64,000 bases of DNA from a virus. Lineage: Duplodnaviria > Caudoviricetes. Each line of letters begins with the position of its first letter. Positions within the stretch are counted from its first letter, which is position 1. The notes under the pieces are model-generated. The model saw nothing but the letters and a program-made list of their open reading frames with translations, did no database searches and was not told the origin of the DNA. Where the stretch lies: positions 96,001 through 160,000 of IMG/VR virus record IMGVR_UViG_3300012344_000386; one strand, given 5' to 3'. This document shows, piece by piece, positions 4,230-41,594 of this stretch. Position numbers and translations under genes: made by a program.

Positions 4230-4643
4230 TTAATCTATTTCTATTTCAATAAAAGATTTCATCTCAAAAGAATAAGAACCTTCATTGTGAGTAGCATCCC
4301 ACCAACAATCTTCATTATTATCTCCTATCCATATTTTTTCTGAATAATTAGGAATAAGAAGAAATGTACGTTCCCATCCCCAATTCTCATCATATTCTAC
4401 AAATATCTTTGTATTAGTAGGAATATGAATGAATGTGTCATGCATAAATATATGTGAATTTACATCATAAATGATGTCATACATATTAAAATGAATTTTA
4501 ATACCTTGTTTAATAGGTTTCTTATTCTTTATTCTATCTATTAATTCATCTATAGTTATCATCTCATCAGGAAAGTTTCCAGATTCAATTTCAAAAGGAT
4601 CAATCTCTACTACATTAACTAATTCATGATTTATATAATACAT
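4230..4643 (-). CDS. Hypothetical protein (similar in size and pattern to 35951..36307)
   Basis: Intact ORF directly after an early promoter. Confidence 0.75.
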   Translation of the reverse strand: MYYINHELVNVVEIDPFEIESGNFPDEMITIDELIDRIKNKKPIKQGIKIHFNMYDIIYDVNSHIFMHDTFIHIPTNTKIFVEYDENWGWERTFLLIPNYSEKIWIGDNNEDCWWDATHNEGSYSFEMKSFIEIEID

Positions 4644-4683
4644 AATTAATAATTCAACTTTATTTTACTTATAATTTATATTT

Positions 4684-4691
4684 CAAAGATA
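4684..4691 (-). promoter_or_regulatory. Early promoter, Bacteroidota sigma-A -7 box TATCTTTG
   Basis: Matches TAnnTTTG; drives the nadR-pnuC operon. Confidence 0.75.
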
Positions 4692-4710
4692 CACATTTTA
4701 TTTTAAATAA

Positions 4711-4743
4711 AAAAGTCTATAATGAAAACCATTATAGACTTTT
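4711..4743. terminator. Intrinsic terminator closing the ncRNA array
   Basis: AAAAGTCTATAATG/CATTATAGACTTTT inverted repeat. Confidence 0.75.
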
Positions 4744-4765
4744 AGAAAATAAACAAAACAAATTA

Positions 4766-4848
4766 AAAATAACTTAATTCTGTCTTATCATCTTGGTTTG
4801 ATTTTATATGTCATTAGTTTGATGTAGTAACATATATTAAGTTATTTT
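4766..4848 (-). ncRNA. Putative stem-closed small RNA
   Basis: 13-bp terminal complement AAAATAACTTAAT/ATTAAGTTATTTT in a non-coding tract. Confidence 0.35.
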
Positions 4849-4870
4849 CAAACAATTAAAAATTCAATAA

Positions 4871-5025
4871 AAATACATATAATGATGTTACCATACGTTC
4901 ATCCTTTTACAGCTCCTACGTTAAGATAATTCTGTTATGTTTTATCTGTTATTATGATCACTTATAACATTAGACATAATTTGCTCACCTTCTCTTACTC
5001 GCTCTTCGTGAGAATATATGTATTT
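4871..5025 (-). ncRNA. Putative stem-closed structured RNA
   Basis: 11-bp terminal complement AAATACATATA/TATATGTATTT; internal CTCAC/GTGAG hairpin with a purine-rich loop. Confidence 0.4.
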
Positions 5026-5032
5026 AAATTTG

Positions 5033-5124
5033 TTTATAAGAGGGAGTCGAACCCTTAATAACCTCATACCGTTAATCCCTTCTCGATTTATCATCGAGCG
5101 TGCATTCCCGCTACACTATTATAA
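5033..5124 (-). ncRNA. Non-canonical tRNA-like RNA
   Basis: TTATAA acceptor ends, D-arm GTGTA..TGCAC, stem CTCGA-TGATAAA-TCGAG, long variable region, T-arm AGGG-TTCGACT-CCCT; anticodon loop lacks U33. Confidence 0.55.
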
Positions 5125-5345
5125 TTTTTACATTTAATATCAATCCAAAAATTATCTACAAATAATTTTCTTCAATCTTTTAAACGTCAACTACTAATAT
5201 AATTGCAGTTATACTTTCGCCTTAGTAACTATACATTAATTAGTTACTTCAATCTCTTGATTATCATTTTAAGAATTATCATAATTTCTTATACTATAAT
5301 AATATCTATGTTAGATAATTGCATCCTTTTCATTATTATAAGGAG

Positions 5346-5443
5346 TGGTTATGGAGGGACTCGAACTCGTCACCGCAATACCTTTCTTCCATTGATATTA
5401 AAATATCAATTAGATACCTCATTAACCATTATGTAACATAACC
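5346..5443 (-). ncRNA. Non-canonical tRNA-like RNA
   Basis: Perfect 7-bp acceptor GGTTATG/CATAACC, D-loop AATGGTTA, T-loop TTCGAGT; anticodon arm replaced by a long AT hairpin. Confidence 0.55.
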
Positions 5444-5448
5444 AAAAT

Positions 5449-5518
5449 AGATACGATTTTTAACAGTTTCCATTTTTATTTCGAAATTATTATATGGACT
5501 TGTACTGACGACGTATCT
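5449..5518 (-). ncRNA. Putative stem-closed small RNA
   Basis: AGATACG/CGTATCT terminal complement, 70 nt. Confidence 0.3.
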
Positions 5519-5652
5519 TCTTTTTCATTGTTTCTCAACAATATAGTCAGATTAAAAATGCACAACTAAAAATCCAAACACACCGGCTCCGTTGGAATAC
5601 TCCTCATGCTCATATGAGACATTTCGTTAATTCTCATATGAATGTTAAATAA

Positions 5653-5764
5653 TGATACATAACCGATGAAGGTTTTTCAACTATTACCGAGACTATTCGT
5701 TATCACGACTTACGAACCATGAGGTTACCGAACTCATGTTACCTATGGCTTATAGGTTGTATCA
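5653..5764 (-). ncRNA. Multi-hairpin small RNA right after an early promoter
   Basis: TGATACA/TGTATCA closing stem; hairpins ACCTAT/ATAGGT, CATGAG/CTCATG, TTCGT/ACGAA. Confidence 0.5.
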
Positions 5765-5785
5765 CCATTTTTATTTCTTACAATA

Positions 5786-5793
5786 CAAAGATA
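5786..5793 (-). promoter_or_regulatory. Early promoter TATCTTTG pointing into the non-coding array
   Basis: Same TGTGTATCTTTG context as other early promoters; no credible ORF follows before the terminator at 4711. Confidence 0.7.
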
Positions 5794-5850
5794 CACATTC
5801 TTTTTTAATTAAAAAAATAATTATGAATCTTTTTTTAATTTTTTATTTAG

Positions 5851-6129
5851 ACAGTATATAGGGAATCGAACCCAGAATGTTATATTGGTCCGCCATATTA
5901 TTATGGTTACATTCTAATTGCAATTATTCACCATAATCTCAAATGGTATATATGTTATATATGCGTATTAACCTTTTGCAATATTAGTCTTTACTATATA
6001 ACATATAACTCTTATATTGTTTCGTGAGTAACGATTAACACTTTCAGTACCATTACTGAAATACATATAGTCTTACTAGATATGCACTATTTTATTATCA
6101 TGTACTTAGATAACAAAATTATATACTGT
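5851..6129 (-). ncRNA. About 280-nt structured RNA with tRNA-like acceptor stem and T-arm
   Basis: 10-bp ACAGTATATA/TATATACTGT closing stem preceded by GGG-TTCGATT-CCC; about seven internal hairpins. Confidence 0.6.
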
Positions 6130-6141
6130 ATATTTTTTATA

Positions 6142-6654
6142 TTAAATATTACGTATAAAGTCTAATAATAAAGGATCTTGTACTGTAAATTTAATATTTC
6201 TTATTTCATATTTCGTTAATGTCATTCTATATTTCTTATTATGTTGAATCTTATAATATTCTTTCATATCTATATTAACAGGGCAATGTTTACTGTTAAC
6301 ACGAAATACTTGCCAATAACAATTATTATAATGTTTCTTATTCAAATTGTCTGCAATATCACGCAAATAAAACCAAATCCATTGGTTTGGAGAATTTGGA
6401 TTCATATAAGCATCAGGAATATAATCATGTGCAAAAGAAGCTTTTCTACCACCATTTTCTTTTAGATATTTCTTTGCTTTTTTCTTTCTCTCAGGAAAAT
6501 CTCGATTCTTCCACGGAAAATCTCCTTTACTTACAGAATACAACTGTACTCTCTCATCATCACATCCCATAGAGAATGAATTCTCTACATAACCACAATA
6601 TGATTCATCAAGTGCATTATATCCTAAAATAATATAAAATTTATTATTTTTCAT
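6142..6654 (-). CDS. Hypothetical protein
   Basis: Intact 170-aa ORF in operon. Confidence 0.75.
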   Translation of the reverse strand: MKNNKFYIILGYNALDESYCGYVENSFSMGCDDERVQLYSVSKGDFPWKNRDFPERKKKAKKYLKENGGRKASFAHDYIPDAYMNPNSPNQWIWFYLRDIADNLNKKHYNNCYWQVFRVNSKHCPVNIDMKEYYKIQHNKKYRMTLTKYEIRNIKFTVQDPLLLDFIRNI

Positions 6655-10016: not shown

Positions 10017-12071
10017 TTAAAAATGAAACTTTGCAGAAGCGAACATATTAAATGGTGTATCAACCAAATAATATGCAGTATTGGTTGGAATATCTACAGA
10101 GCCATTAGAGAAGTTAAGCCTATTTGTAATGTTATTCAATACAAGGTTCAACTCTACAATCTTTGATACTCGTGCATTTACATAAGCATTTAACGTAAGA
10201 TTCTCCTTAAGTTTATTCTTATTATAAATATCCATATACATTGATGAACGGAAATTTGTATTCAAACCAAACTTAATTTTATTAACCATATAATTAGCTT
10301 CAGCAAACAATGTAGATGAAGGTGAGAATGTATGATTCATTTCCTTACCTTCAATATTCTTTAATTTATTCTCTGACCATGCCGCATTTGCAATGAAATG
10401 CAATGTATTAATAGGATTATAATCAAGGGCAAGTTCCAATCCAAGACGGTATGCATCATGTTGCTTATGCAATGGAAGACCATTCATCTTTGAAAGTTCA
10501 CCGGTTGCAACAAGTTCATTACTGAAATTCATATAAAAACCATTAATATTGAAATTAACCTTATTGTTACGGATCTCATAACCTGCTTCAATATCATGAA
10601 CTCTCTCATTCTTTGTATTCATCTCCGATTCATTTGAACGATACTCTGCACAGAATAAATCAGTTCGAGATGGTTCACGGTTTGTTACAGCATAACGTGC
10701 ATATACCTTTAAATACTTATCAATATCATAATTAAGTCCAATACTGTAATTTACAAAATTCCAATCATGATTAAACTTTGTATCATATTCATCCATTGGT
10801 GTATTTACACGATAATGCAATGACGTATAACGATATTGAACAGCAGCATCAATAGTGAACTTATTTACTGGTGCATACTTTACATTTGCAAATACATTCA
10901 CATCTGGTTTTGTTCCTGCATTATCATAATATGGTGTAAGTCCAGGATTTTTCCATGCAGTGATAATACTATCAGAATTTGCAATATCATATCCCTGATG
11001 TCTACGATGATATACATAAGCATTTACACCAGATGTAAGAGAAAGATTATCAATAGGATAATACTTTACAATAGTGTTAAATCCTGTTAAATTATAATTA
11101 AGATGATAGTTATTCAATACACTTCCTGTTGGTCGTGTCTCATCATCCCAACCAATACGGTAATTACCTGTCTGATGTTGCCAATACACAGATGATGTTA
11201 GAAATACTTTGTCTGAAAGAACTCCCTTATATTGAAACCTATTATAAGTTGTTAAGAAATCATCTGTTTCCTGTTGACGATTACCTGAAATCATCTGCTT
11301 AAATGGTGTCGGATGCTTCGGAATTAAATCTTCAGTAATTCCCTGAAATCCCTGTCCATTCCTATGATAACCAGTCATTGTCAAGAAATCCAATGAATGT
11401 CGTTCATTAAAGAAATATCCTGTCTTAATAGTAATTGCCTTCGAATTATTGTAAGTATTCTCCTTATAACCATCAGTTTGCTGTGCAGTGCCACGAACAT
11501 GTAATCCCCAATGTCCTTTCTGTCCCATATTATAAACACCTGTAATTCGAGATGAATTAAATGAACCATATCCAAGGTCAAAATAAGAATCGGTATCTTT
11601 CTTCAAATCTACAGATTCAAGAGAAACATTTCCTGCATAAGCAGCTGTTCCATTATTAGTTACAGATGCACCTTTCTCTACCTTAATAGTATGCATAGAA
11701 GACATAAGATCTGGAGAATTACTAAAATAACATCCAAAATCTTCTGCTTCGTTCCAAGGCATTCCATCCAATGTAACATTCATACGTTCCTGACCCATGC
11801 CACGCATACGGAAATAACAGTATCCCATTTGTGTTCCATTATCATTATACGCATAAATATTAGGAAGTCTTTGCAATACATAATCTGTTCCCTGACCATG
11901 ATTCAAAGACTTAAGTGTAGATGTATTAATCATACTACCTGTCTGCACATTATTACGGAAAAGAGAAGTAACAGTTACCTCTTTCAACTTCACTGTATCA
12001 GAAACATTTTCTGCATACATGTTAGCAATACTCATTACCATAATGAGCATAGAAAAAATAATCTTATTCAT
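10017..12071 (-). CDS. TonB-dependent outer-membrane receptor (vitamin-uptake type)
   Basis: Signal peptide, TonB-box-like LKEVTVTS, plug motif FRMRGMGQERMNVTLDGMPWN, LNNITN motif, C-terminal Phe (AKFHF). Confidence 0.9.
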   Translation of the reverse strand: MNKIIFSMLIMVMSIANMYAENVSDTVKLKEVTVTSLFRNNVQTGSMINTSTLKSLNHGQGTDYVLQRLPNIYAYNDNGTQMGYCYFRMRGMGQERMNVTLDGMPWNEAEDFGCYFSNSPDLMSSMHTIKVEKGASVTNNGTAAYAGNVSLESVDLKKDTDSYFDLGYGSFNSSRITGVYNMGQKGHWGLHVRGTAQQTDGYKENTYNNSKAITIKTGYFFNERHSLDFLTMTGYHRNGQGFQGITEDLIPKHPTPFKQMISGNRQQETDDFLTTYNRFQYKGVLSDKVFLTSSVYWQHQTGNYRIGWDDETRPTGSVLNNYHLNYNLTGFNTIVKYYPIDNLSLTSGVNAYVYHRRHQGYDIANSDSIITAWKNPGLTPYYDNAGTKPDVNVFANVKYAPVNKFTIDAAVQYRYTSLHYRVNTPMDEYDTKFNHDWNFVNYSIGLNYDIDKYLKVYARYAVTNREPSRTDLFCAEYRSNESEMNTKNERVHDIEAGYEIRNNKVNFNINGFYMNFSNELVATGELSKMNGLPLHKQHDAYRLGLELALDYNPINTLHFIANAAWSENKLKNIEGKEMNHTFSPSSTLFAEANYMVNKIKFGLNTNFRSSMYMDIYNKNKLKENLTLNAYVNARVSKIVELNLVLNNITNRLNFSNGSVDIPTNTAYYLVDTPFNMFASAKFHF

Positions 12072-38611: not shown

Positions 38612-40909
38612 ATGGAGAATTATAAAAATTTTAAATCAGAAACTGTAGGTATCCCTGAATTTGATAAAATTAGAAATGAAGGAAGACTTCTTATAGAATA
38701 TGTCAGGGGCTCTACTTCATATGGTCTTTCAACAGAATCTTCAGATATTGATTCAGGTGGAATTTTTATCTGTTCAATTAAAGAACTTCTTGGATATAAT
38801 TCATATAAGGAAGAAGTTGCTGATGCAAAGAATGATAACAAATGGTATGAATTAAATAAATTCATTTCACTCCTTGTAAAAGCAAACCCTAATATTCTTG
38901 AAGCTTTGTTTGTAGATGATAGATTTATTATAGGCGAAATTCATCCTATTATGAAATATCTACGTGAACATAGAGACATGTTTTTAACTAAACAATGTTT
39001 CACTTCATTCTATAAGTATGCAGAATCACAAATTTATAAGGCAAGAGGTCTTAATAAAAAAATTGTAAATCCTATTACAGAACGGAAAACACCCCTTGAT
39101 TTTACATATACATTTAGAAAACAAGGTTCACAAAATATTGTTAATTTTCTAAAGGAATATGGACTACGTATAGAATATTGTGGTTTGTGTAATATTAATC
39201 ACATGCGAAATAATTATCACATGTTTTATGATTGGGGTAGACACCTATATGAACATCCTGAAGATAAGGAAATTCTTATTAATTCAAGATTAGAACTTAA
39301 TTATGATAGAATAAAAAGATTTCCTTCTATTGATGATGAACCTATTATTCATTATAGAGGGTTAACTACTGAAATTGTTTCACATACAACTCAACTTCGT
39401 TTATCTTCTATCGATGATAAAGATGATTTACCTATTTGTCAAATATCATATAATGTAGATGGATTTCAAGATCATTGTAGAAGATATAAGGAATACAAAG
39501 AATGGGAAAAGAATAGAAACCCTGTGAGATATGAATCGAATCTCAATAAAAACTATGATTGTTATTTAAATAATGAAACAGAATTTTTAACAATAAATGG
39601 GTGGAAAAAATATGATGATATATCAAATGATGAATTAATAGCTTCTTTTGATAATAATCATAATATACAATTTGTACCCATTTTAAGCAGATTCTCTGAT
39701 AGTTATTCGGGTATAATATATACATTTGAAAATAGATATACACGTTTTTCTGTCACAGATAACCATAAAATGTATGTTTCACCAATTCATAGAAATATTT
39801 CAACAAATTTCTCTACAAAATATATAAAAGAAAAATCAAATTGGCAATTAATTAAAATTAAAGATTTATTTAATAATAAACGCTCATATTTTCATCAACT
39901 TCGTCATTTAAATAATAATAATAAAGATTATAATATAACAGATGATGAATTAATTATATTAGGCGCATTTTTATCAGAAGGTACTTTTGAATATAATAAA
40001 AAGCATGAAATTAATGCTATACGTATAGGTCAATATGAGCATAAAGATTTTACAAATATTATTAGAAATATAAAAAGTATTAATATTAAAGAATATAAAT
40101 CAAATAGAAATAAAAAAAATGATATAGAAATTTCATGGATAATTAGAGATTCAAATATTCTTAATATTTGTAAACAATGTAATGGATATTATTCTTATGA
40201 AAAAGAATTACCATCATTTTGTAATAAATTATCAAAACGACAAGTTGATATATTATTAAATATTATGATTTTAGGTGATGGTACAAAAAATAAAAATAAA
40301 GGTCATTATGTTTATTATACGTCTTCAAAAAAATTAGCAGATTCATTATATACATTATTAATATGTAATGGATATAATTGTCAATTTTATGGATGTAATG
40401 ATAATTATTTACATAAAAATGGTTATATACGTAAAGATGGTATTATCTTACCAAAATATCAAATTTTTATATCAAAAAATACAGAATCAACTAATGCAAT
40501 TCATTTTAATGAAAATGATAAACATTGGCACATTAAAAATGTAATTAATGAAAGAATTGTATGTTTTGAAAATAAAAATCATACGCTTGTAACTAGAAAT
40601 AATTATAAAGTTGCATTTCATGGAAATTCTAAGAACATGATGCATAGCTTTCGTCTTATTCATATGGCAAAAGAAATTGCATTAGGAAAAGGAATGAAAC
40701 TCTATAGAACTGAAGATCATGATTTTCTTATGAATATTCGAAACCATAAATATGAATATGATGAATTAATTAAATTAGCAGATAAAGAAAAAGAAGAAAT
40801 GTATGAAATTATGAAACATTCTTCTATTCCTGATTCTGTTGATGAAACTAAATTAAATGAAATTCTAATTAATTTACGAATGATGCAAATTAAAGAAGAA
40901 ATGAAATAA
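38612..40909 (+). CDS. Pol-beta-superfamily nucleotidyltransferase (YcgL/RlaP-like) containing an intein
   Basis: RGSTSYGLSTESSDIDSGGIF, ANPNILE; C-extein KNMMHSFRL..IRNHKY. Confidence 0.85.
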   Translation: MENYKNFKSETVGIPEFDKIRNEGRLLIEYVRGSTSYGLSTESSDIDSGGIFICSIKELLGYNSYKEEVADAKNDNKWYELNKFISLLVKANPNILEALFVDDRFIIGEIHPIMKYLREHRDMFLTKQCFTSFYKYAESQIYKARGLNKKIVNPITERKTPLDFTYTFRKQGSQNIVNFLKEYGLRIEYCGLCNINHMRNNYHMFYDWGRHLYEHPEDKEILINSRLELNYDRIKRFPSIDDEPIIHYRGLTTEIVSHTTQLRLSSIDDKDDLPICQISYNVDGFQDHCRRYKEYKEWEKNRNPVRYESNLNKNYDCYLNNETEFLTINGWKKYDDISNDELIASFDNNHNIQFVPILSRFSDSYSGIIYTFENRYTRFSVTDNHKMYVSPIHRNISTNFSTKYIKEKSNWQLIKIKDLFNNKRSYFHQLRHLNNNNKDYNITDDELIILGAFLSEGTFEYNKKHEINAIRIGQYEHKDFTNIIRNIKSINIKEYKSNRNKKNDIEISWIIRDSNILNICKQCNGYYSYEKELPSFCNKLSKRQVDILLNIMILGDGTKNKNKGHYVYYTSSKKLADSLYTLLICNGYNCQFYGCNDNYLHKNGYIRKDGIILPKYQIFISKNTESTNAIHFNENDKHWHIKNVINERIVCFENKNHTLVTRNNYKVAFHGNSKNMMHSFRLIHMAKEIALGKGMKLYRTEDHDFLMNIRNHKYEYDELIKLADKEKEEMYEIMKHSSIPDSVDETKLNEILINLRMMQIKEEMK
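39560..40627 (+). mobile_element. Cis intein (356 aa) with LAGLIDADG-type endonuclease
   Basis: Starts CYLNNETEFLTINGWK, block B VTDNHKM, LGAFLSEG and MILGDG, ends AFHGN/S. Confidence 0.9.
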
Positions 40910-40915
40910 GTATGA

Positions 40916-40952
40916 AAAAAGAGATATGTCTTTGAATGACATATCTCTTTTT
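40916..40952. terminator. Intrinsic terminator
   Basis: AAAAAGAGATATGTC/GACATATCTCTTTTT. Confidence 0.75.
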
Positions 40953-40989
40953 CTATATATAATATTTTCAATATTCTAAAATCTAAAAA

Positions 40990-41560
40990 TTAATTTTCTA
41001 AAAAGAAAGTAACCAAAGAAAAATCATATTTTCATTAATTAATTAAAAATTGATCCTACAATATTTATCTCTATAAAAACTTACCTTCATTTTCAGAAAA
41101 GAAAGTATGCAAAGAAAAGAACCAAAAGAAAATTAATTTTTCAATATTATATAATAATTAATTTTTTAAATAATTTATATATAATATCTATCACATCCTT
41201 AAATACTAACATATTTATTATACTAAGCTTTTCAGAAAAAGTCTACTTTTTAATGAATTATTTTTATAATTTTTAAAAATAATTTATAATTAGCTGATTA
41301 TCAATAATATTTATCATTATAAAAATTTAATATAGTTTTTTTTAGATATAATTAAATATAATTAATAAATATAAAAATTTATTTTTTAAAAAGAAAGTAG
41401 ACAAAGAAAAAGTAATCAAAAAGAAAAGAACCAAAAGAAAATTAATTTTTCAAATTAAATTTAATTTTTCTTTATATATTTCTTTAATATCTTAACCTCT
41501 CAAAATACCAGTATTTATTTTACTTACTTTTGAAGAAAAAGTCTACATTTTTAAGAAATA
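40990..41560. repeat. Extremely AT-rich non-coding region with an imperfect ~300-bp duplication and iteron-like repeats
   Basis: AAAAGAAAGTAnnCAAAGAAAA at 41001, 41097, 41389; identical 33-mer at 41112 and 41421; AGAAAAAGTCTAC at 41234 and 41534. Confidence 0.8.
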
Positions 41561-41594
41561 TTTTTAATAAAAATTGAAAAAAGTTTATAACATT

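Follow-up and report, generated by a model that had tools for sequence, protein, structure and literature searches.

An array of structured noncoding RNAs (ncRNAs) was identified in a 64,000-nucleotide (nt) stretch of phage DNA, positions 96001-160000 of the single 249-kb contig that forms the source assembly (IMG/VR record IMGVR_UViG_3300012344_000386; this whole stretch is hereafter called the window). The array occupies a gap of ~1.5 kb (4644-6141) between two minus-strand genes (4230-4643 and 6142-6654), and comparison with related phages indicates that it is a conserved operon of structured RNAs under purifying selection. We give about an even chance to a fuller account, in which this is a minus-strand ncRNA operon conserved among the Lak megaphages, with tRNA mimics punctuating a predicted processing of the transcript. 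The initial annotation had proposed a cassette of structured, noncanonical ncRNAs running from a promoter to a terminator. That observation is confirmed, with compensatory changes in several helices, and its interpretation is partly supported. Terminal complements close each of the seven units it had delimited (A to G), and all RNA features of the gap lie on the minus strand. The features are listed here from the upstream gene to the terminator; A2 and A3 are the two alignments described below.

6142..6654, minus strand: gene for a 170-amino acid (aa) protein directly upstream of unit G; PHROG 15953 (function unknown)
5851..6128, minus strand: unit G, a 277-nt RNA with tRNA-like ends (a 7-pair acceptor stem beside a T-arm) and a large folded body
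5786..5835, minus strand: promoter element, a T-rich block and then TGTATCTTTG (5795..5786), aimed at lower coordinates
5647..5776 (core 5653-5764), minus strand: unit F, an RNA with a three-way junction, 5'-most in the predicted transcript
5611..5640, minus strand: hairpin d (A2 helix 7), 13 pairs, 98.6% of alignment cells paired
5560..5609, minus strand: domain e, a nested pair of helices enclosing the conserved loops GGAGTATT and TTTTTAG
5527..5542, minus strand: hairpin f (A2 helix 10), 3 pairs with 2 double changes; sequence differs between clades
5449..5518, minus strand: unit E, a 70-nt stem-closed RNA with a nearly invariant core
5346..5443, minus strand: unit D, tRNA-like, with an acceptor stem, a D-arm with GG (AATGGT loop), and a T-loop
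5131..5186, minus strand: hairpin X (A3 helix 1), a long hairpin between units D and C
5032..5125, minus strand: unit C, tRNA-Tyr-like, of the long-variable-arm type
4871..5025, minus strand: unit B, a 155-nt multibranched RNA with a closing stem and four inner arms
4766..4848, minus strand: unit A, a B-clade-specific hairpin with a 13-pair closing stem
4711..4743, minus strand: intrinsic terminator, a 15-pair stem (3 G-C) and then a T-rich tail (TTATTT)

Lak phages are among the largest phages of the human and animal gut. Across the 2.5 kb surrounding the array, the window is 99.3% identical to Prevotella phage Lak-B2 and 98.9% identical to Lak-B4; the same stretch matches Lak-A1, Lak-A2, and Lak-C1 at ~74% identity, in blocks only. 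These values indicate that the source is a B-type Lak megaphage of Prevotella. For comparison, ten distinct A/C-type sequences (L001-L006 and L009-L012) were assembled from pattern scans and GenBank records; L007, a duplicate of L005, and L008, a chance match, were left out of the alignments. Three DNA patterns drawn from the conserved core found the same two A-type contigs only among viral contigs, and a metagenome scan returned seven loci, five of them further A/C-type sequences. Identity is 96-99% among the A/C-type sequences and ~65% between them and the window overall, and the B-type genomes have a reported average nucleotide identity of 61-65% to Lak-A1 over the aligned region (PMC6784885, Table S3). 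Variation within the B clade was taken from Lak-B2 and Lak-B4, and for the array body effectively two clades (B and A/C) were aligned.

The gap holds no credible open reading frame (ORF), as the initial annotation had stated: the longest is 77 aa under translation table 11, and the longest stop-free run is 88 codons when TAG is read as Gln, as Lak phages are reported to do in PMC6784885. Among the stop-codon recodings tried, a long frame opens only if TAA is removed. Counting ATG-initiated ORFs of at least 70 aa with TAG as Gln, the contig has no larger ORF-free gap outside its tRNA cluster.

Read on the minus strand, the early promoter of the initial annotation (5786-5793) gives TATCTTTG, which forms the core of the promoter element (5793..5786). 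The longer form given in the list contains a -7 box, TAnnTTTG, which we take to be the Bacteroidetes -7 consensus. Together with its preceding T-rich block, the element occurs 24 times in the contig (~1 copy expected), and 18 of the 24 copies stand 25-53 nt upstream of an ORF on the same strand. Copies far from ORFs head the RNA array, the tRNA cluster (two copies), and another ORF-free gap. The element is almost unchanged between the B clade and the A/C clade. It was also seen in the distant Lak-like contig L021 and in the 636-kb uncultured phage LR756504.1 (L033:3020-3029), which has nothing else in common with the array region. At the other end of the array, the annotated terminator is likewise present on the minus strand (4743..4711) and is the sole terminator-like site in 4500-6300 (0.3 in shuffles); the A/C clade has a different hairpin with a T-run in its place. 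A second copy of the promoter element (4693..4684) follows the terminator and serves the gene 4643..4230. Because promoter and terminator bracket the array, the predicted transcription unit runs from ~5780 to 4711 (~1.05 kb) and takes in units F, d, e, f, E, D, X, C, B, and A. The single seven-unit cassette of the initial annotation therefore holds for F, E, D, C, B, and A, but not for unit G (6128..5851), which lies outside the promoter-terminator unit because it is upstream of the promoter. In the A/C clade, a 74-aa ORF stands between unit G and the promoter (L001:2534-2755, minus strand, with equivalents in the other A/C-type loci); the B clade, represented by the window, is without it.

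Conservation of the array was apparent at two depths. Between the clades, three blocks (6039-5842, 5835-5415, and 5222-4859) are 71-76% identical; identity is 74-76% for the RNA blocks and 71.5% for the flanking gene. Among A/C-clade sequences, the array has a nucleotide diversity of 0.018 and unit G one of 0.0195; the two flanking ORFs have 0.037-0.044, and their third codon positions 0.047-0.055, the last being two to three times the value for the array.

Covariation was then scored on curated structures, which were obtained with RNAalifold on the scored alignments; two long-range helices that clashed with unit D were removed, and unit C was drawn as a cloverleaf. In alignment A2, which spans F to E (74 pairs in 13 helices), 13 pairs are changed on both sides and still paired, against 2.0 ± 1.2 in shuffles, none of 500 of which reached the observed number, and 0-2 with slid partners. 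Alignment A3, which spans X, C, and B (88 pairs in 13 helices), has 19 such pairs, against 2.7 ± 1.3 in shuffles (again 0 of 500) and 1-4 with slid partners. MAFFT misaligned the window at the closing stem of unit B (A3 helix 7) and at one strand of the T-stem of unit D, so that both helices are under-counted for it. Some of the changes are recent and independent: within the A/C clade, GC and AU alternate in helix 5 of unit F, and UA and AU alternate in the anticodon-like stem of unit C. Between the window and Lak-B2 and Lak-B4, which are 99% identical to it, three of the 12 differences in the gap fall in that same stem of unit C, where C:G has become U:A and U:A has become U-G. Across A2 and A3, 15 pairs have G-U as their commonest type, and these fit the minus strand only, because the plus strand would show C-A mismatches. 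Collectively, these results indicate that the RNA structure of the array is real, beyond chance, and that many of its helices have been kept through compensatory substitutions.

The support differs among the units. Unit A has no conserved counterpart in the A/C clade, and the outer stem of unit F has a clade-specific sequence at the same position in both clades. Within unit F (A2 helices 1-6), helix 4 (7 pairs) and helix 5 (5 pairs) each have two double changes, one of those in helix 5 varying within the A/C clade (GC in 8, AU in 3), and helix 6 is invariant; in the closing stem, the window has complementary insertions on both strands. Hairpin d has one double change and two one-sided changes, both wobble, and domain e (A2 helices 8 and 9) has four double changes in 12 pairs. 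A 17-nt tandem duplication at hairpin f (columns 246-266 of alignment A2, ~5527-5545) is polymorphic among A/C-type genomes, being present in Lak-C1, Lak-A2, L005, L009, and L011. The 8-pair closing stem of unit E is uninformative because seven of its pairs are invariant; its inner hairpin has one doubly changed pair, with the tip cleanly deleted in L009, and only 5 nt separate the end of the unit from the acceptor stem of unit D. Hairpin X has 22 pairs, six of them doubly changed, with 96.7% of cells paired, and upstream of it lies partly conserved sequence (5187-5345) with a small hairpin at 5225-5247. Unit B, which begins ~10 nt after unit C, has strongly conserved loop sequences and nine double changes in 42 pairs (A3 helices 7-13). 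Its covariance model, R1, finds one copy per Lak genome (152 bits in the source genome and 201 bits in an A-type genome) and at most 15 bits elsewhere; neither G002 nor G003, two distant Lak-like contigs, yielded a homolog (best E 0.3). Units B, E, F, and X and elements d, e, and f matched no Rfam family at the gathering score and gave nothing above noise at E ≤ 10. No helices linking one domain to another over long range were found; those proposed by RNAalifold clashed with the supported acceptor stem of unit D.

The window sequence was also folded alone, and the effect of the Lak-A1 substitutions on the predicted pairs was counted. Doubly changed pairs were still paired in 22 of 26 cases, against 11 of 26 in coding controls. 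The counts by region were as follows.

F-to-E block, minus strand: 8 doubly changed pairs kept, 1 broken
X-C-B block, minus strand: 14 kept, 3 broken
3' part of unit G, minus strand: 2 kept, 1 broken
Flanking gene, sense: 7 kept, 7 broken
Flanking gene, antisense: 4 kept, 8 broken

When folded as the plus strand, the X-C-B block did worse (7 kept, 6 broken). Folding energies on the minus strand were compared with dinucleotide shuffles, a control that the initial annotation had named. Structure exceeded the shuffles for the whole span 4744-5775 (z -3.45) and for several units (A, -3.6; C, -2.0; E, -2.2; F, -2.2; G, -3.4 to -3.6), but the effect was modest and uneven, with B at -1.1 and D at -0.9; thirteen 100-nt coding control windows had a mean z of -0.53. 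The unit z-scores are biased because the units were picked by their end stems, and they were not leaned on; covariation with the A/C clade gives the stronger support.

These measurements bear on a reading in which the region has no RNA function and is either a tRNA cluster in decay or an element that acts as DNA, for example an origin or a packaging site. The gap region is very AT-rich, so hairpins arise easily in it; unit A is not conserved, and the T-stems of C, D, and G in the window are weaker than those of their A/C-clade copies, all of which such a reading would accommodate. It would not account for compensatory changes in excess of those in coding controls, for within-clade diversity two to three times below that of adjacent third codon positions, for G-U pairs that fit one strand only, or for a promoter and a terminator in the correct orientation, and the cumulative GC skew makes no turn at 4644-6141. 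We therefore regard it as highly improbable.

Units C and D appear to be degenerate tRNA look-alikes, termed mimics here. In both, an acceptor stem, a GG-bearing D-arm, and a T-loop with TTCGA are retained, and a normal anticodon loop is missing; a seven-base anticodon loop with U33 was found in none of C, D, and G. On the Rfam tRNA model RF00005 (gathering score, 29 bits), unit C scored 26.0 bits, unit D 17.5 bits, and unit G gave no match, so that all three miss the gathering score. The 14 canonical tRNAs of the phage scored 48.6-66.6 bits on the same model, placing C and D 22-49 bits below them. The initial annotation had recognized no Rfam family, which is correct at gathering scores, but C and D are recognizable as degenerate tRNAs. 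In unit C, the 6 A-U pairs of the acceptor stem and the 4 pairs of the D stem are invariant, the D-arm is canonical, and only three T-stem pairs are conserved. Its anticodon-like loop reads U-G-R-U-A-A-A, with G33 in 11 of 11 aligned sequences; all 14 canonical phage tRNAs, read by eye, have U33. Double changes are present in two of the five pairs of the anticodon-like stem, one of them varying within the A/C clade, and two of the five pairs of the variable arm are changed on both sides. Unit D has an insert in place of the anticodon loop, ~30 nt in the window and ~105 nt in the A/C clade. All seven pairs of its acceptor stem are kept, with four double changes (slid controls, 0), and its D stem has 3 pairs. 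Its T-stem, perfect in the A/C clade, consists of 4 pairs and a bulge in the window; when the cloverleaf was read by eye, the mismatch of the window was a G:C pair in Lak-B2 and Lak-B4.

Whether C, D, and G might instead be working tRNAs, with unusual loops or "enigmatic introns," that decode after splicing (C reading Tyr codons) was weighed on the same data. ARAGORN calls unit C tRNA-Tyr in every clade, as Tyr(ata) in the window and Tyr(gta) in the A/C clade, and, with introns allowed, calls the orthologs of unit G in L004 and L009 tRNA-Tyr(ata) with a 170-nt intron. Intron-bearing tRNAs have been reported from Lak phages, and Lak-A1 and Lak-A2 have no intron-less tRNA-Tyr in Table S2A of that report (PMC6784885, accessible portions). 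Against such a role, C and D have the low RF00005 scores given above, G33 of unit C is invariant, its acceptor stem consists of 6 A-U pairs, and between clades both the would-be anticodon of unit D (AAT vs. GAA, by our own reading) and the length of its insert (~3.5-fold) vary. With introns allowed at default stringency, ARAGORN called neither D nor G in the window; at lowered stringency, it called D Ile(gat) without an intron and a 154-nt part of G Thr(agt). Its anticodon assignments for the orthologs were inconsistent: Tyr(ata) or none for G and, at the A/C-type loci, Tyr or Cys with a 921-937-nt "intron" that covered D through G. The tRNA tables of PMC6784885 (Tables S2B and S6), which were produced with tRNAscan and include a eukaryotic-mode re-prediction, enter no tRNA at this locus in Lak-A1 or Lak-B2. 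A decoding role for these units is thus improbable in our judgment.

Unit G would be a third tRNA-ended RNA, in a separate transcription unit behind the 170-aa gene. It starts right after the stop codon of that gene (6654..6142), and the two occur in this order in the B and A/C clades and in L021 alike. Its closing stem is paired at 7 of 7 positions in 14 of 14 sequences from three clades, with the different letters CAGTATA, CGGTACG, and GGGAGTT; the best 5' partner was chosen within a 180-nt span, which inflates this pairing somewhat. The unit is 277, 252, and 249 nt long in the three clades, with a body of ~200 nt that takes the place of an anticodon loop. In the A/C clade, its T-stem is 5 pairs long, against 3 in the window, where no D-arm is visible; a small D-arm is present in the A/C clade and L021. 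The 170-aa protein has homologs in Lak-type phages only (P0002-P0004, at 73-85% identity) and no match in the genome-contig set. It gave no credible Pfam match and none by Foldseek against the PDB at E ≤ 0.001, and its AlphaFold model has a mean predicted local distance difference test score of 66. It is possibly a partner of unit G.

The operon reading to which we give an even chance would work as follows. The predicted transcript folds as a series of domains, each closed by its own stem (F, d, e, f, E, D, X, C, B, and A). Because some units end like tRNAs, processing of the tRNA kind is plausible: host enzymes that form tRNA ends would cut at units D and C, RNase P on the 5' side and a 3' endonuclease on the other. 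These cuts would punctuate the precursor and free the flanking folded RNAs as stable small RNAs, and the mimics C, D, and G would not decode. Our best guess is that the freed RNAs bind host factors that act on tRNAs.

Several observations weigh against this account. The conserved Tyr-type anticodon of unit C (GTA/ATA) means that it could still decode, and T-stems of 3-4 pairs in C, D, and G of the window might be too weak for RNase P. Unit A cannot be aligned to the A/C clade, where small, different hairpins stand, and the fold z-scores of units B and D are no better than those of shuffles. In the window-only test, one-sided changes broke 44 pairs and kept 18 in the RNA blocks (69 and 15 in coding controls); since they mostly break pairs, many of the single-sequence minimum-free-energy pairs must be wrong. 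The plus-strand fold of the F-to-E block, with 10 doubly changed pairs kept and 1 broken, is as good as that of the minus strand. The scored structures were derived from the same alignments and then curated by hand, most double changes count a single split because the array body has two clades only, and the shuffle control takes no account of relatedness.

The initial annotation had also suggested decoys or sponges, here taken as tRNA look-alikes and hairpins that would absorb host tRNA-cutting defense nucleases or tRNA-binding factors. This concerns function only and is compatible with the processed operon. The altered anticodon-like loops of the mimics are conserved across clades, high expression is reported for some Lak intergenic regions, with 4644-6141 not singled out (10.1101/356790, accessible portions), and an RNA-repair-type gene lies in the same window, encoding a 765-aa protein (38612-40909, plus strand) with an N-terminal domain of RlaP, an RNA-repair-pathway nucleotidyltransferase, which may bear on conflicts over tRNA or RNA damage. 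The non-tRNA units B, E, and F resemble nothing known, and we consider a decoy function unlikely. A further proposal, which we hold with similarly low confidence, is that the array represents a new class of ~1-kb modular RNA. Mimics with anticodon loops disabled by G33 or inserts would be strung covalently between unique domains and, whole or processed, would capture host proteins that recognize tRNAs (anticodon nucleases, modification enzymes, and synthetases), protecting the large tRNA set of the phage and its recoded translation.

For Lak biology, these results offer a first structural reading of one unexplained large intergenic region, with coordinates, strand, promoter, terminator, and helix-level models for the array. 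Large, strongly expressed intergenic regions, as well as odd tRNAs, were singled out as unexplained by the describers of Lak phages, at least in the accessible portions of their reports. Those of the preprint 10.1101/356790 describe, in general and not tied to 4644-6141, Lak regions of up to ~1.5 kb without proteins or tRNAs, some of them ranking with the most highly expressed regions of the genome. The accessible portions of that preprint and of PMC6784885 propose no structure, covariation, or RNA gene for such regions, and the 2021 Lak paper (PMC8346664) makes no mention of intergenic, noncoding, or tRNA-like RNA or of ncRNA. The analysis also adds three more tRNA-shaped RNAs of a huge phage, probably nondecoding, which bears on host defenses directed at tRNA and on the alternative code of the phage.

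Other features of the genome were recorded alongside the array. The neighboring genes in the window are of the T4-like megaphage type and include topoisomerase II subunits, NadR, PnuC, and a thymidylate synthase-DHFR fusion. At 10017-12071 (minus strand), a 684-aa ORF in this phage genome has the plug and β-barrel domains of a TonB-dependent receptor. Two more ORF-free gaps are present, at 40910-41594 in the window (685 nt) and at 198762-199712 of the contig, outside the window (951 nt); the latter begins with a copy of the phage-wide promoter element. The canonical tRNA cluster lies ~92 kb from the array on the contig (minus strand, outside the window) and contains expanded tRNA-shaped elements at contig positions 5006-5165 (160 nt), 5394-5628 (235 nt), and 2092-2305 (214 nt). 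These have perfect acceptor and T-arms and are missed by default ARAGORN, and the last holds a nested tRNA-like element at 2131-2240. The array shares only 9-11-nt matches with the nested "intron" elements of the cluster (E ≥ 0.04).

Among known systems, the intron-bearing tRNAs of Lak phages come from the same lineage and, like units here, are tRNA-shaped RNAs with large inserts at the anticodon loop. Those tRNAs sit in the main tRNA clusters (PMC6784885, accessible portions), whereas the tables cited above have no tRNA at the array locus. Exons with a defined anticodon once a 37/38 insert is removed were not found in the array units, and units B, E, F, and X, in contrast to the Lak intron tRNAs, are not tRNA-like at all.

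GOLLD and ROOL (RF02032 and RF03087) are phage RNAs found near tRNA islands, and the GOLLD linker sometimes holds tRNAs (10.1101/2024.12.08.627333, accessible portions). The array resembles them as a large, many-stemmed phage ncRNA, and the GOLLD trait of being phage-borne and beside or enclosing tRNA genes is present here as tRNA-like units embedded in the predicted transcript. The array differs in its short, individually closed domains and in matching neither model in sequence or structure. GOLLD gave no match in 4500-6400 at E ≤ 10; ROOL gave none either, nor did it in the control genomes. It could be that the ~1-kb transcript stays whole as an ornate multidomain RNA with tRNA-like modules in its linker, in the manner of GOLLD, and might multimerize. 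The size, the phage location, the many closed domains, and the tRNA-like modules mid-transcript fit this, as do the tRNA-island setting of GOLLD and ROOL and, in L021, a GOLLD match that follows the same promoter motif and lies 1.3 kb from a pair formed by the 170-aa gene and a G-like RNA. The missing GOLLD and ROOL matches, the lack of long-range interdomain helices, and a separate, tentative GOLLD-like match elsewhere in the source genome speak against it, and on balance a whole, ornate RNA seems rather unlikely. The L021 match (5386-5805, plus strand) spans the full model at 80.8 bits (E 5e-20, cmscan), below the 150-bit gathering score, behind two copies of the promoter motif and followed by a tRNA-like gene and a tRNA-Met. 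A looser whole-genome search found GOLLD-like matches at 193139-193499 of the source contig (L023:1501-1861; 61.8 bits), the only site there, and at 370164-370526 of the A-type contig G001 (L025; 67.8 bits); the former was not reproduced by cmscan on L023 and is tentative. No treatment of GOLLD and megaphages together was found in the literature searched.

The processed operon that we favor has more distant parallels. The tRNA cluster of phage T4 also yields two stable non-tRNA RNAs, "species 1 and 2," which tRNA-processing enzymes release from a transcript shared with tRNAs; we know of no function assigned to them. Here, by comparison, the tRNA partners are degenerate, and the array is far from the real tRNA cluster. 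Plant mitochondrial t-elements, mascRNA, and herpesvirus tRNA-miRNA units are nondecoding tRNA shapes that recruit RNase P or RNase Z and set the ends of neighboring RNAs. Those examples are eukaryotic or organellar, whereas processing of the Lak array is predicted from its tRNA-like ends. The array is akin to two known kinds of RNA, the tRNA-like RNAs of phages and the large structured phage RNAs that lie beside tRNAs.

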